From a virus (lineage: Duplodnaviria; Caudoviricetes), in the IMG/VR virus record IMGVR_UViG_3300025679_000005: a DNA stretch of 64,000 bases. One strand, 5' to 3'. This document shows, one piece after another, positions 4,148 through 47,061 of the stretch (its first letter is position 1; every line of letters starts with the position of its first letter). Both the position numbers and the translations under genes were made by a program. The notes under the pieces are model-generated. The model searched no databases and was not told the DNA's origin. It worked only from the letters and a program-made list of their open reading frames with translations.

Positions 4148-4780
4148 TCACCAGGTGAAGTTGCCTTCAGCCTTACGTAGCTTGAGACGAGTCACGATCC
4201 ATGGGCCATAGGCTAGGTTGAAGAAGAGTCCTCCAGCCCAGCGCTTGCGGTCATAGTCCGACAAGTCTCTCATAGCACGATCACGACGACATTCGATGTT
4301 GAAAGCAGCAGCATCAATCATGGCTTGGCGGTGTTCACCCCAGATAGGGGCATGTGCCATAACCCAAACACTGTAATCGACAGCGCCCTCCTCACAAAAG
4401 GGATCTCCCTCAGGGAACCCTGCCAATGAAGCGTGCATGAACTCGTGGGTGAGCTTCTCCAAGGTCGTTCCTGGCTTGCCCTCAACGATGGATGGTGAGA
4501 GGCGGACCTGACCGTTGTCGGGTTGGAAGCTGGCGTTGGCACCACCCGAGTGGGCCCCATCATGGATCGAGAGGATCTCAGACATGGGCTCCTGTTGGTA
4601 GGGGCCTAGGGCTTGGGCGATGAAGGCGTAGCACTTCGGGGCCCACTCCTCGATGAACTTGTTCCACTCTGGGCTACACACGCTCGTGGTGAACTGCTTG
4701 GCCGCCCTTTTTGGCAGGATCGAGGCAGTCCTCAGGGTATGCTGCACTTCTGCTGGAAATGGGTTCACCCCAAAGCTCAT
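4148..4780 (-). CDS. putative zincin-like metallopeptidase
   Basis: THEFMHASL HExxH with downstream EEG. Confidence 0.65.
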   Translation of the reverse strand: MSFGVNPFPAEVQHTLRTASILPKRAAKQFTTSVCSPEWNKFIEEWAPKCYAFIAQALGPYQQEPMSEILSIHDGAHSGGANASFQPDNGQVRLSPSIVEGKPGTTLEKLTHEFMHASLAGFPEGDPFCEEGAVDYSVWVMAHAPIWGEHRQAMIDAAAFNIECRRDRAMRDLSDYDRKRWAGGLFFNLAYGPWIVTRLKLRKAEGNFTW

Positions 4781-4820
4781 TTATCAAAACCCTATGGATT
4801 TCTGGTGTATACCACCGGAT

Positions 4821-5219
4821 ATGTCCATGTCCTCAAAGATCACCACGATGATTGCGGCCAACCCTGGCTGGCTGGCCGTTTTCACTACGGCTGAAGGGAA
4901 CCCAATTTTCGTGCCGGTAGCCGCCTGGGCTTCCTTCGAGCATGAAGATGAGGGTGAGGAAATGTGGCCATCGGTTGAAGCCATGATTGCGGACGGTTTC
5001 CGTATCGTTCCAATCTACATTCAAGAAGAGTACGACGTGGATATGTTGGTCGGGATCTTCGGCCCTGAGCAGGTGGCAGCTACCGGACCCAAAGCCTGGA
5101 CCGAAAAATGCTTAGATTACCTGGCTGAAATCAAGAGCCTGGAGGCAGAGCATGCAGCGAACTGCCCTCACCATGGCGCCGAAGCCAATGAACTGAAGCT
5201 AGTTCCCAAGCCCAACTGA
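4821..5219 (+). CDS. hypothetical protein
   Basis: Acidic ORF; ATG 12 nt after a GGTGTA motif. Confidence 0.65.
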   Translation: MSMSSKITTMIAANPGWLAVFTTAEGNPIFVPVAAWASFEHEDEGEEMWPSVEAMIADGFRIVPIYIQEEYDVDMLVGIFGPEQVAATGPKAWTEKCLDYLAEIKSLEAEHAANCPHHGAEANELKLVPKPN

Positions 5220-5336
5220 AGCCTCTCAAAGAAAAGATCACCCGACCCAAACTTTCTACTTGACGTTTCACTTATAGCACTGTACTTACTAGGGACGCTG
5301 GTTGCAGAGCCAGCACCTATCCAAAAGCAAAAGGTC

Positions 5337-5567
5337 ATGTCTACTTCAACCGCAACCACACATACCAGCAAACCGGAGCTAACAGCTTCTGTGCTGTGGT
5401 GTGGGGTCAAGTTGGGACGGACCGTCAGTGGGATCAAGTTGGGCCGAGGCTTCGGCGGTCAGTCCCCCATGACGACCTCAACGCTCGGCGGCCTCCGCCA
5501 GGATAGCCAGAAGTATTCGCAACCAGCCTCCATTTCGTTCGCTGGCAATCTGGAGGCAGAAGCGTAA
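5337..5567 (+). CDS. putative leader peptide (76 aa) of the tRNA array
   Basis: AAAGG RBS; Thr/Ser-rich N-terminus; stop abuts antiterminator/terminator structure. Confidence 0.5.
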   Translation: MSTSTATTHTSKPELTASVLWCGVKLGRTVSGIKLGRGFGGQSPMTTSTLGGLRQDSQKYSQPASISFAGNLEAEA

Positions 5568-5630
5568 GGCGGTTTAGGATCACCCCCAAAGGGATCTGAA
5601 ACCGCCTCCGAAAGGAAGAGCGGTTTTTTT
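5567..5630 (+). terminator. intrinsic terminator with competing antiterminator (attenuator-like)
   Basis: AAACCGC(5599-5605)/GCGGTTT(5620-5626), GAAA loop, T-tract; alternative helix AGGCGGTTT(5567-5575)/AAACCGCCT(5599-5607). Confidence 0.7.
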
Positions 5631-5652
5631 CGTTTTAGGGCTCAGAAATTAC

Positions 5653-5735
5653 GGGTCGTGTGCTGCGCCGGGACGCAGGTCTGACTGTAAATCAGATGTC
5701 AATTGGCTATCTAGGTTCGACTCCTAGGCGACCCA
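5653..5735 (+). tRNA. tRNA-Tyr(GTA)
   Basis: Loop CTGTAAA, long V region, T-loop TTCGACT. Confidence 0.85.
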
Positions 5736-5791
5736 CTAGGAGAAACACATATCATGGAGAGGAGAATCAAACAGAGCTGCTGACACCCTGC

Positions 5792-5863
5792 GGGCCAGTA
5801 GCTAAGTGGTAAAGCTTTCGACTTTTAATCGAATGATCGCCGGTTCGAACCCGGCCTGGCCCA
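5792..5863 (+). tRNA. tRNA-Lys(TTT)
   Basis: Cloverleaf, loop CTTTTAA. Confidence 0.9.
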
Positions 5864-5905
5864 CCTTAAATGGGTGTCTTAATCTGCTTGTAAACCGATC
5901 CTAGT

Positions 5906-6541
5906 ATGCAAAGGGATCGACAGCTACACTCAGATTACACCACTCTGAAGATGAGGATTAGGCACAAGAGGTTGAAGCAACGAGCAGTCGACTATAAGGG
6001 CGGCAAGTGTGAGACCTGCGGATATGACAAATGTCTGTCCGCTTTGGAATTCCACCACACCGATCCAAATGAGAAAGACTTCGGGATAGCTTCTTCCACC
6101 AGATCTTGGGAAAGTGTCAAAGCAGAACTGATCAAGTGTAAGATGCTGTGTTCCAATTGTCACAGGGAAGAGCATGAACGGCTGACGGACTCTAAGCATG
6201 AAGAGCTTACCGTGAAGGTAAGGGAAGTCATACCAGAGAGGCCACCGGGGTTAAAAGCAGTCAGTCACTACTGCCTTGTTTGCAAAAAGGTTTTTGAGAC
6301 AGATGAGCCTGAACGCAAATTTTGCAGCACACTATGTACTCACAAAGATCAGGAAGTTACGAGCTGGCCCAGCGATTCTGAGCTGGCCCAAATAGTGTGG
6401 CAGATGCCTGTGAGTGCTGTCGCAAAGCAACTGAATGTCTCCGACAAAGCTATTTCCAAACGATGTAAACTGAGAGGCATAGAGACTCCAGGTAGAGGTT
6501 ACTGGCAACGACAACGGGTGTATAACTCAATGGTAGAGTAG
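5906..6541 (+). CDS. HNH endonuclease, family A (C-terminal WPS..LVW..LGVS..RGYW HTH-like tail)
   Basis: CETCGYDKCLSALEFHHTDP..LCSNCHREEH; stop lies in the D-arm of tRNA-Lys. Confidence 0.85.
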   Translation: MQRDRQLHSDYTTLKMRIRHKRLKQRAVDYKGGKCETCGYDKCLSALEFHHTDPNEKDFGIASSTRSWESVKAELIKCKMLCSNCHREEHERLTDSKHEELTVKVREVIPERPPGLKAVSHYCLVCKKVFETDEPERKFCSTLCTHKDQEVTSWPSDSELAQIVWQMPVSAVAKQLNVSDKAISKRCKLRGIETPGRGYWQRQRVYNSMVE

Positions 6542-7096: not shown

Positions 7097-7810
7097 ATGC
7101 AACCAGAAACAGCCATTTGCTCTGTGTGCCACGACCCTAAGCTACTGACCTCTTTTGAGATGGCTAAAGTTGGTCGTCGGACTCAGTGCAACCAGTGCAG
7201 GCACCTCCAAAAGAAGAAGGCCAATCCTGACAGAGTCAAAAATGAGGGCCGAAAAGCCCATGGCAAAATTGCCGCTAGACGGCGTCTATATCCAGATTGG
7301 GCTATTTACGTAGACTGTAAGGCCTCCGACAGAAAACGAGGATTGGTCAACGATTTGGACAGAGAGGTCATTCGGTGCCTAATTGCCAAGGGGTGTCAGT
7401 ACTGCGGTGAGACTCGACTTCGCATGACCCTCGATAGAAAAGACAACTCCTTAGGGCATGTGCAAGCAAATGTGATGCCCGCCTGCCTACGTTGTAATTA
7501 CATGAGAGGCTCTATGCCTTATGCTGCGTGGGAATTGATTGTTCCTGTGTTGCACAGCATAAGAGAACAAGGCCACTTCGAGGATTGGCAGTCAGTACCG
7601 CTCAATCTTCAATATGCTGAGGACCAGTCAATGGAGACACCCTCTGACCCAAAGCAGCACAACGGTACTGCGATGGTCAAAATAACGTGCTTGGAGTGTG
7701 GCCAGCAAGCGGTTAAGGTTGCAGGGTATGTGAAGGCTAATGCACAGAAGGGCCATAAAGGACCCTTCTGTGGAAGGTCCTGTGCTGCTAAATACTCTTC
7801 TAGAAAGTAA
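7097..7810 (+). CDS. HNH-like endonuclease, family B (paralog of 22384-23088)
   Basis: GCQYCGETRLRMTLDRKDNSLGHVQANVMPACLRCNYMRGSMPY. Confidence 0.8.
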   Translation: MQPETAICSVCHDPKLLTSFEMAKVGRRTQCNQCRHLQKKKANPDRVKNEGRKAHGKIAARRRLYPDWAIYVDCKASDRKRGLVNDLDREVIRCLIAKGCQYCGETRLRMTLDRKDNSLGHVQANVMPACLRCNYMRGSMPYAAWELIVPVLHSIREQGHFEDWQSVPLNLQYAEDQSMETPSDPKQHNGTAMVKITCLECGQQAVKVAGYVKANAQKGHKGPFCGRSCAAKYSSRK

Positions 7811-35422: not shown

Positions 35423-35816
35423 GGGCCCGACAGGTTTCGACTTGGTGACGAAGGAGACGATCGATTGTGCAATGGGAGTCTGCCCCATAAAACAGGCATC
35501 GCTAACTGCGAACGATAATTACTACGCTGCTGCTGCCTGAAAGGGTAGCCGCTCTCTAAACGGGAGCACACAGCCACTACTTCCGTAGCGCCTCGGTACC
35601 GGAAGAGTGAAACCAAAACAGAGGCTGCGCTTACCGGGATTGCCTAACCACCGGGTAGCAAAGATTGCAGAATGGCTTTGGGCAGACAAGATTCTGCTGG
35701 AATCGTCAAAGGCAGCTTGCGGTCGATGATGATGATTGAAGTCTCTAGCAAGCTACGCACATGAACAAGATCCCTCTGTAGGAATCGAGGACCCGGCTTC
35801 AATGCCGGCGGGTCCA
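35423..35816 (+). ncRNA. ssrA: tmRNA, one-piece; tag ANDNYYAAAA*
   Basis: GGGCCCG/CGGGTCC with G3:U70, 5' GACAGGTTTCGAC, TAACT then GCG AAC GAT AAT resume codons (35508-35540), T-arm near the 3' end. Confidence 0.92.
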
Positions 35817-36073
35817 CTAAGTGATTCAGCAAACTCTCTGGTTGAATCATGAGGCAGAAGGTACCTTCTGCCCTGCTATCACGCTCACGACGGAAAGCGG
35901 CTGCGTGTCTTTAGGTAGCACTGTGATTGCGGTAGGTTTGAGAGACGGGCCTACTCCGGTCACAGAACGAGACCTTTAGCGGGGATCTTTCCAAGAACGG
36001 CATCTGAATCTCAAAATGGGATCAGATGCCGTTTCACTTTCAGGTGTAGGAACGTCTGGTGATCAGACGGAGA

Positions 36074-46095: not shown

Positions 46096-47061
46096 ATGGC
46101 CAGCAAGATCCCTCCATTCTTCATTTTCTATGGCGACGAAGAAGTGTTGCTTAATCGCGCAGTGTTCGCGCACAAGGCTTCTTTCGGAGACAGGGATGTG
46201 ATCACCCTAAATGGCTCTGAGAAAGAGAACTCCGTGGTGACGCTGTGCGAGACTCGTGCGATGTTTGGGGATGTTGAACGGCATGTTGTGATCCAAGATG
46301 CCAACGACATCAAACTAGAGGGCGCCCTTAAAAAGTATCTGGAAGAACTGAACCCAGAGCATAGCTCATCGATTCTGACGGCCGTCATACACGAGCCGAA
46401 GTTGCCGACGGCCTGGGCGGCTCTAGCCAAAAGTCACGGTTCTGTCTCTAGCTTCTTGAAGCTCAAGCGGTGGGATAAGGTCGGCTTTAGGAAGCGTGTG
46501 ATCGACGAAGCCCATCGTCTATTTCTGAATTTGGACGAGGGCGCTTTGGAGTTCCTGGATAGGCATTTTGGGGACAACCTAGCAGGCATCTATAACGAAT
46601 TGGGGAAACTCAAGTACTTCGTAAGCGACGGCTTCGTCACCAAAGCGCATGTCGTGTCTGTGATATCCCCCGACAGGCACGTCAAGCCGTGGGAGGTCGC
46701 AGATGCGGCTTTGGCTAGAAAGCTCAATGAGGCCCTGCACTGTCTGACTATCATGTATGCGAATGACGAAGGCTCCTCAATACCTGTCGCCAATAGCCTG
46801 TTGTCGAAGGTGGAGCAACTTTTGATCGCACGTCAGATGCTTGATCAGGGGGACGGCCCTAGCATTCTAGCGGTGCGTTTCAATATGACAGAGTGGGCTT
46901 GCCGAAATAACCTGCTTCCCTTGATGAGTCTTTACACGACAGCGAAGCTCAAGAAGCATTACAATCGTCTATGTAAATTAGACTACGAAATACGTAGTTC
47001 GGCAAGGTCCAAGAGAACCTTGGTTGAGCTTGCTGTGATCGCTATCGCAAAGGATCAGTGA
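46096..47061 (+). CDS. holA: DNA polymerase III clamp-loader delta-like subunit
   Basis: FIFYGDEEVLL, NELGKL, C-terminal LDYEIRS; adjacent to holB. Confidence 0.75.
   Translation: MASKIPPFFIFYGDEEVLLNRAVFAHKASFGDRDVITLNGSEKENSVVTLCETRAMFGDVERHVVIQDANDIKLEGALKKYLEELNPEHSSSILTAVIHEPKLPTAWAALAKSHGSVSSFLKLKRWDKVGFRKRVIDEAHRLFLNLDEGALEFLDRHFGDNLAGIYNELGKLKYFVSDGFVTKAHVVSVISPDRHVKPWEVADAALARKLNEALHCLTIMYANDEGSSIPVANSLLSKVEQLLIARQMLDQGDGPSILAVRFNMTEWACRNNLLPLMSLYTTAKLKKHYNRLCKLDYEIRSSARSKRTLVELAVIAIAKDQ

Follow-up and report, generated by a model that had tools for sequence, protein, structure and literature searches.

A candidate transcription attenuator with an all-amino-acid leader peptide at the entrance of a jumbo-phage tRNA array

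Known attenuators and the entrance of the tRNA array

The enterobacterial leaders trpL, hisL, leuL, thrL, pheL and ilvGMEDA/ilvBN follow a textbook plan in which a promoter-proximal short ORF of 14–32 codons is succeeded by a terminator lying before the regulated genes, and by an antiterminator that shares one of its strands with that terminator. The leader stop codon is placed just before the 5′ strand of the antiterminator (in trpL, just before segment 2), such that a terminating ribosome favours the terminator. These leaders contain a run of one or a few regulatory codons, and the attenuators serve biosynthetic enzymes. Attenuation of a component of the translation apparatus by the supply of charged tRNA is represented by pheST of E. 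coli, a host-borne system in which the Phe-rich leader pheM responds to a single amino acid and the controlled product is an aminoacyl-tRNA synthetase. T-box riboswitches also read the state of the tRNA pool through a terminator/antiterminator switch, but they bind uncharged tRNA directly and do so without a leader ORF.

What phages gain from their tRNA genes has been a matter of debate for 50 years, and very little is known of how these genes are regulated. Phage tRNAs have been proposed to compensate for codon usage, to replace host tRNAs that have been degraded, and to evade tRNA-cleaving defences (PMC10264068, PMC11555353). Full-text literature searches turned up no publication that describes leader-peptide attenuation of tRNA genes, or a leader containing all 20 amino acids.

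The DNA analysed here (the window; 64,000 nucleotides in full) is the minus strand of positions 46137–110136 of a 155-kb IMG/VR virus record. The record is estimated to represent about one third of a genome, and its source is therefore a jumbo phage. ARAGORN identifies 41 tRNA genes and a tmRNA gene in the window, all on the plus strand, with 38 of the tRNA genes in an array extending to coordinate 18881, and three more together with the tmRNA gene further on. The first gene of the array, tRNA-Tyr(GTA), starts where a preliminary description of this DNA had placed it (Table 1). No tRNA-Trp gene is present in the record (about one third of the genome), though the leader described below does contain a Trp codon.

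Ahead of the tRNA-Tyr gene there is a 76-codon ORF, a segment immediately following it (seg1) that can pair with a second segment (seg2) to form an antiterminator, and a predicted intrinsic terminator in which seg2 pairs with a third segment (seg3) instead (Table 1). We think it fairly probable that together they act as a transcription attenuator of the ribosome-mediated (trp) type that guards the entry to the tRNA array, its leader sampling all 20 amino acids; slow decoding by ribosomes would probably switch the tRNA genes on. The preliminary description had invoked classical attenuation logic at this site, and comparison among related loci supports that proposal through the open frame, the position of the stop codon, both alternative helices, and the upstream promoter.

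The locus has in common with the enterobacterial systems the promoter-proximal short ORF, the terminator before the genes that would be regulated, the strand shared between terminator and antiterminator, and the stop codon just before the antiterminator 5′ strand; a helix within the leader (H1) lies where the 1:2 pause hairpin lies in trp. It differs from them in that the leaders are 47–78 codons long, the targets are phage tRNA genes rather than biosynthetic enzymes (or, as in pheST, a synthetase), and every amino acid is encoded at least once with no regulatory run. Unlike the enterobacterial leaders, the locus lacks an upstream competitor of seg1, and absence of translation should therefore lead to read-through and not to super-attenuation. 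The leader ORF also sets the locus apart from the T-boxes. What is new here would be the use of an all-20 leader in place of a run of regulatory codons, and the phage tRNA genes as targets.

The gene located to the left of the leader and divergent from it (coordinates 4148–4780, minus strand) codes for a 210-residue protein with an HExxH motif (T-H-E-F-M-H) that belongs to no Pfam family. Relatives were gathered with this neighbour protein, which yielded 36 loci in viral contigs of 230–450 kb; it is conserved at 52–68% identity and adjoins the leader divergently in related jumbo-phage contigs, and in most of the 36 loci a tRNA array beginning Tyr-Lys-Lys-Gln lies across from it. The leader peptide and the upstream ORF (4653–5219) used as queries against viral contigs returned no relatives, and the leader region and neighbour gene have no match among cultured-phage records.

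The preliminary description recommended looking for the same leader before other phage tRNA arrays, and it is found at 23 further distinct loci. These and the window form a set of 24 distinct loci within one clade that have the same cassette ahead of the first tRNA gene, and as they are related, counts among them are not fully independent. The small ORF ends 86–470 nt ahead of the first tRNA gene, and the cassette runs in the order of a sigma70-like promoter, a 47–78 codon ORF, a stop codon abutting seg1, and a seg2 with alternative partners. The 3′ segments consist of seg1 GGCGG(C), a variable hairpin, seg2 (G)CCGCC, a GNRA-type loop, seg3 G(C/T)GGC, and a tail CGTTTYAGGG. Because the arrangement recurs in 23 other loci with both helices covarying, it reflects more than chance. 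Locus L002 has a 53-codon ORF at the same place (5750–5911, minus strand), containing 19 of the 20 amino acids and separated by 36 nt from the first tRNA gene, and neither a terminator nor an antiterminator follows this ORF; it may be a decayed or an alternative form.

Table 1. Features at the entrance of the tRNA array, in coordinates of the window
Feature	Coordinates	Strand	Basis or remark
Sigma70-like promoter, TTGACG, 17-nt spacer, TACTTA	5260–5288	+	~48 nt before leader ATG
Leader ORF, 76 codons, ATG start, stop TAA 5565–5567	5337–5567	+	All 20 amino acids
Hairpin H0 in leader, GAGCT-AAC-AGCTT, before W-C codons	5376–5388	+	Centroid fold
In-frame 27-nt tandem duplication in leader	5401–5446	+	19-nt copies at 5401 and 5428
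Helix H1, GCCTCCA 5526–5532 / TGGAGGC 5551–5557	5526–5557	+	Duplex energy test
Predicted antiterminator, seg1 (5567–5575) : seg2 (5599–5607), enclosing hairpin 5577–5581/5593–5597	5567–5607	+	MFE −22.5 kcal/mol
Predicted intrinsic terminator, stem 5598–5609/5614–5627, GAAA loop	5598–5636	+	−14.6 kcal/mol
tRNA-Tyr(GTA), first array gene	5653–5736	+	ARAGORN; Rfam

Predicted terminator and antiterminator helices

In the preliminary description the stop of the 76-codon ORF was said to abut the 5′ strand of an antiterminator helix that is mutually exclusive with an intrinsic terminator. The stop codon and seg1 do adjoin in this manner, and both helices are present at the coordinates given in Table 1 and are conserved and covary in the 24 loci. 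The antiterminator falls within an inverted repeat with arms of 15 nt each (5567–5581 and 5593–5607) that are 87% complementary, and this repeat is the minimum-free-energy (MFE) fold of 5555–5640, with z = −2.6 relative to shuffles. By predicted energy the antiterminator of the window clearly beats the terminator unless seg1 is masked. The tail of the predicted terminator consists of T7 (5624–5630) followed by CGTTTT.

Among the 24 loci the terminator helix (seg2:seg3) is 94.4% paired and includes 18 doubly changed cells, and its covariation was reached by none of 500 shuffles. The antiterminator core of seven pairs is 89.9% paired and its covariation was reached by one of 500 shuffles (16 of 500 with 17 loci), a result resting on few events (A-U in L006; U-A in the window, L021, and others), as the first five pairs are almost invariant. 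This value was obtained with an alignment redone from the seg1 core; on an unanchored MAFFT alignment the antiterminator covariation is not significant, as seg1 occurs in two registers with respect to the stop codon. Duplex energies were also compared between segments of the same locus and segments combined across loci. For seg1:seg2 these are −17.2 and −15.1, respectively, and for seg2:seg3 −18.7 and −16.3, with the same-locus advantage reached by none of 5000 permutations in either case; seg1:seg3, included as a control, has no same-locus advantage.

In the predicted nascent RNA, prior to synthesis of seg3, seg2 pairs with seg1 in 24 of 24 loci, and when seg1 is masked the terminator is predicted in 24 of 24, both counts including one locus (L037) that is to be disregarded as its seg1 was set 12 nt too far upstream. 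For the full-length RNA, where L037 is likewise to be disregarded, the MFE fold contains the antiterminator in 14 loci and the terminator in ten, and in these ten the switch must therefore be kinetic.

In 21 of the 24 loci the stop codon either overlaps the seg1 core by 1 nt or precedes it by up to 2 nt, with the core beginning at offset 0 to +3 when counted from the final base of the stop. In the other three (L019, L023, and L026) the ORF ends 8–15 nt further on, inside the antiterminator stem. A ribosome reaches ~12 nt 3′ of the A-site codon, and with the stop beside or inside seg1 a terminating ribosome would thus cover seg1 in every locus. From the helices and their position relative to the stop codon, we infer both that the hairpin functions as a terminator and the direction in which the switch operates.

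The hairpin with its CGTTTYAGGG tail occurs only once in the 155-kb record, and the suggestion that it is the standard terminator type of this phage was rejected on this count. A three-way junction closed by pairing of seg1 with the tail had appeared in RNAfold folds of several relatives and was also rejected, as its pairing is weak (−8 kcal/mol) and lacks covariation (546 of 5000); in L012 and L020 the tail has a G-to-A change with no compensating change. Rfam searches, at the gathering score on the window and with E-values up to 10 on 5150–5760, gave only tRNA, tmRNA, and chance-level matches, with no match to the T-box (RF00230) or to the phage non-coding RNAs GOLLD and ROOL.

It is conceivable that the leader is translated and the switch exists, but with a different output or logic. 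For example, translation could shield the leader from Rho, such that an untranslated leader and a smoothly translated one both end transcription; or the switch could set the stability or processing of the tRNA precursor in place of termination, or gauge overall ribosome availability in place of individual charged tRNAs. The CGTTTYAGGG tail of most relatives is a poorer U-tract than those of textbook terminators, the terminator is already the MFE fold in the ten loci noted above, and most relatives have a second conserved mini-ORF and more hairpins before tRNA-Tyr, which point to more layers of control. However, in the window a clean T7 lies directly after the stem, the geometry copies that of the trp attenuator, where the trpL stop falls just before segment 2, and the completeness of the leader in amino acids is most simply seen as a means of sensing each of them. 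Taken together, we consider these variants unlikely.

The leader reading frame, its amino-acid content, and the promoter

Over the 50 codons before the stop in 17 loci (850 codons) the leader frame contains no stop codons, whereas the other two frames contain 19 and 24. An ATG or GTG is conserved at the start position and is preceded in most cases by GGAG/AGGA; in the window the Shine-Dalgarno-like sequence (AAGG) is weak and only 2 nt from the ATG. Leaders of the relatives vary from 47 to 78 codons, with the typical start at 47–59 codons and greater lengths where there are insertions. The window leader is ~20 codons longer than most because of a 27-nt tandem duplication, and its insertion relative to other leaders is visible in alignments. 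The repeat noted in the preliminary description is indeed there as two 19-nt copies in frame (Table 1), which are 89% identical and spaced by 27 nt.

Pairwise differences among the leaders are 0.55, 0.54, and 0.57 at the three codon positions with no codon periodicity, and by this comparison the leader is free of protein-type constraint. A frame that is kept open without protein-type constraint is what would be expected if translation matters more than the product, and we infer from the alignments that the leader ORF is translated.

All 20 amino acids are present in 21 of the 24 leaders, and each of the other three lacks only one (I, D, or C). The Thr/Ser-rich codons remarked upon in the preliminary description are not the telling feature of the leader, which is instead this completeness. 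When compared with phage protein windows of the same length, 1–5% of which have all 20 amino acids at 47–59 residues, the summed count has a z of 8. The last 47 codons, a measure that is independent of the choice of start codon, include a mean of 19.4 distinct residues, versus 16.6 ± 1.6 in windows of the phages’ own proteins and 15.5 and 16.1 when the same stretch is read in the other two frames. Nucleotide shuffling under the constraint of an open frame predicts 1.6 complete leaders among the 24, with a maximum of ten in 100,000 simulations.

The completeness is not accounted for by conserved positions. When residues are shuffled within alignment columns, such that every positionally conserved residue is retained, the leaders average 17.95 ± 0.18 distinct residues and 2.3 of them are complete; the observed values of 19.88 and 21 were reached by none of 5000 shuffles. 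Met, His, Asp, Ile, Lys, and Gln are spread over 16–38 alignment columns (16 for internal Met, 20 for His, 16 for Asp, and 18 for Ile), and each leader keeps at least one. The rare residues thus shift column yet are always kept, which argues for selection on their presence and not their position. A profile search of a large protein database identified 16 small ‘hypothetical proteins’; all 11 of the homologues that are new and full-length have all 20 amino acids, one of them within 48 residues, and three homologues without His are gene calls truncated at the N-terminus.

The leaders also exceed length-matched gene windows in their number of distinct codons (mean z of +2.2), and their codon usage is average. 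Codons read by the phage’s own tRNAs are not enriched, constituting 75% in the leaders versus 81% in phage genes, and a matching of the leader to the phage’s own tRNAs was rejected for this reason. There is no run of any codon in the leader that could be regulatory. Every one of the 24 leaders has exactly one Tyr codon among its last 47 codons; a special role for this codon ahead of tRNA-Tyr was considered and rejected, as it is covered by the all-20 rule, under which rare residues are present about once each.

Within the leader, helix H1 is formed by CCCACCUCC with GGAGGUGGG in most loci and by GCCUCCA with UGGAGGC in the window, and has a duplex energy of −17.6 in the same locus versus −15.5 across loci, reached by none of 5000 permutations. 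Two peptide-like motifs, P-T-S and P-E-V-G, correspond to the two arms of this helix. The 3′ arm of H1 resembles a Shine-Dalgarno sequence (GGAGG) and stops 5 nt short of the last sense codon, and GGAGG or GAGG is at exactly this distance in at least 20 of the 24 leaders. Such spacing could let a ribosome with the stop codon in its A site pair with GGAGG, suggesting that GGAGG may hold the ribosome on seg1 and that H1 may act as a pause hairpin. At the position of H0 the relatives have hairpins of different sequence, as judged by eye. The leader stop codons are UAG in 19 loci, UAA in five, and UGA in none of the 24, and all are therefore RF1-readable; UGA ends 93 of 150 long ORFs of the phage, yet never the leader.

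Promoters were searched for as the pattern TTGnnn, 16–19 nt, TAnnn[T/A], which often follows an A/T-rich tract. Of the 24 loci, 22 have it in the 160 nt that precede the leader, as opposed to 7.8% of random 160-nt windows, and only one has it between the terminator and the first tRNA gene. The gap from terminator to tRNA is 20–36 nt in the window, L010, L020, and L030, leaving no room for a sigma70-like promoter. With gaps this short, and without the pattern downstream, the first tRNAs are most simply transcribed through the terminator. A promoter belonging to the array itself downstream of 5630, which the preliminary description had named as a finding that would speak against attenuation, is unsupported as regards sigma70-like patterns: only 22 nt separate the T-tract from tRNA-Tyr in the window, and among the 24 loci the pattern falls between terminator and tRNA gene in the single one just mentioned.

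These observations bear on whether the ORF is an ordinary small phage gene, coding for a protein of 50–76 residues and followed by a constitutive and perhaps leaky terminator, with the array transcribed from a phage-specific promoter elsewhere. Gene callers have annotated the homologues as hypothetical proteins, it is commonplace for a terminator to follow a gene, the motifs W-C, Y-P-T-S, and N-P-E-V-G-T look peptide-like, and L002 keeps the ORF without the terminator. But all three codon positions diverge equally, the P-T-S and P-E-V-G motifs coincide with RNA helix arms, and a small gene would account neither for all-20 completeness with rare residues at shifting positions nor for the complementarity of seg1 to the terminator 5′ arm. 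There is moreover no sigma70-like promoter between the terminator and the tRNA gene in 23 of 24 loci, and in the window, L010, L020, and L030 none would fit after the terminator. We regard a small gene of this type as quite improbable.

A structured non-coding RNA (an sRNA or processing element) heading the tRNA precursor, with functional helices and an incidental open frame, would have precedent in the large non-coding RNAs GOLLD and ROOL that occur next to phage tRNA genes, and would suit the several helices that covary inside and after the ORF and the absence of codon periodicity, but it is highly improbable in view of the lack of an Rfam match even at E-values up to 10, the stop codons found solely in the other two frames, the start conserved as ATG or GTG, the in-frame duplication of the window, the weak three-way junction (−8 kcal/mol, no covariation, 546 of 5000), and the selection for all 20 amino acids, which makes sense only if the frame is read.

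Proposed operation and neighbouring elements

In the trp-type attenuator that we favour, host RNA polymerase would start at the promoter at 5260–5288 and transcribe the leader. A ribosome that is not delayed would reach the stop codon (5565–5567) and cover the part of seg1 immediately after it (5568–5575), perhaps with the help of the GGAGG located 5 nt before the last sense codon in holding it there. With seg2 (5599–5607) then free to pair with seg3, the terminator and U-tract would form and transcription would stop 22 nt before tRNA-Tyr. If instead the ribosome stalls earlier, or never loads, seg1 would pair with seg2 once both have been made, blocking the terminator such that polymerase continues into the tRNA genes. 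As the leader has at least one codon for each amino acid, the switch should open whenever any one charged tRNA runs short, and the device would provide demand-driven control of the supply of a nearly complete tRNA set.

Whether the leader acts as an omnivalent sensor of all tRNAs, such that the phage transcribes its complete set of back-up tRNAs only if some class of codons fails to be decoded, is a question on which we stand evenly divided. We place equal weight for and against the view of the leader as a ‘pangram’ sensor, i.e. a translated test sentence using every amino acid.

The physiological trigger of read-through would presumably be one of the possible causes of such a shortage, which include amino-acid starvation, host shut-off, and tRNA-cleaving defence nucleases. 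Host defences that cleave particular tRNAs include PrrC, PARIS AriB, and retron effectors (PMC10264068, PMC11555353, PMC12409363), and work on phage tRNAs in counter-defence (PMC10264068, PMC11555353, PMC12409363) offers a plausible trigger for the switch. Alternatively, the phage’s own shut-off of the host could drain the tRNA pool and open it.

If this operation is correct, tRNA production is demand-driven in at least one clade of giant phages, and attenuation, classically tied to one amino acid and one pathway, can also monitor decoding capacity as a whole. Attenuation would then have a general, omnivalent form, with a stress sensor for counter-defence built in. The completeness rule offers a simple criterion for finding leaders of this kind in other genomes, and as the element is self-contained and small, at ~380 nt from promoter to terminator, it could, if it works as proposed, serve as a compact genetic sensor of translation stress.

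Several other elements are associated with the tRNA genes of this phage. ORFs with Cys-rich and His-rich motifs that are homing-endonuclease-like lie between the tRNA genes (5906–6541, 7097–7810, and others), the first of which has no Pfam match above threshold. A tRNA with the anticodon CUA (amber-suppressor type) and a long variable arm is located outside the window at 131463–131556 on the plus strand of the genome. Recoding of TAG by this tRNA(CUA) was considered and rejected, as TAG ends 23 of 150 long ORFs and the stop codon of the window leader is TAA. The phage-encoded tmRNA (35423–35817) adjoins tRNA-Leu(CAA) and specifies the tag ANDNYYAAAA, and is another sign of investment in translation rescue.

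The second mini-ORF of most relatives (L005, L016, L017, L019, L021, L022, L023, L025, L032, L036, L037, and L038) is absent from the window. It has 16–25 codons of the form M..(D/E)(R/S)-Y-R-(S/R).. with one invariant Tyr codon, and occupies the last ~70 nt before tRNA-Tyr, running into the 5′ end of the tRNA and often following a hairpin with a T-run; it may represent a second, Tyr-specific layer of control. In L015, L016, L017, and L038 it is preceded by two or three tandem copies of the motif CAC(A/G)GGAGACGTGTA(T/C)C, which lie no more than 130 nt upstream of the first tRNA gene and could be either a protein-binding site or a phage promoter.
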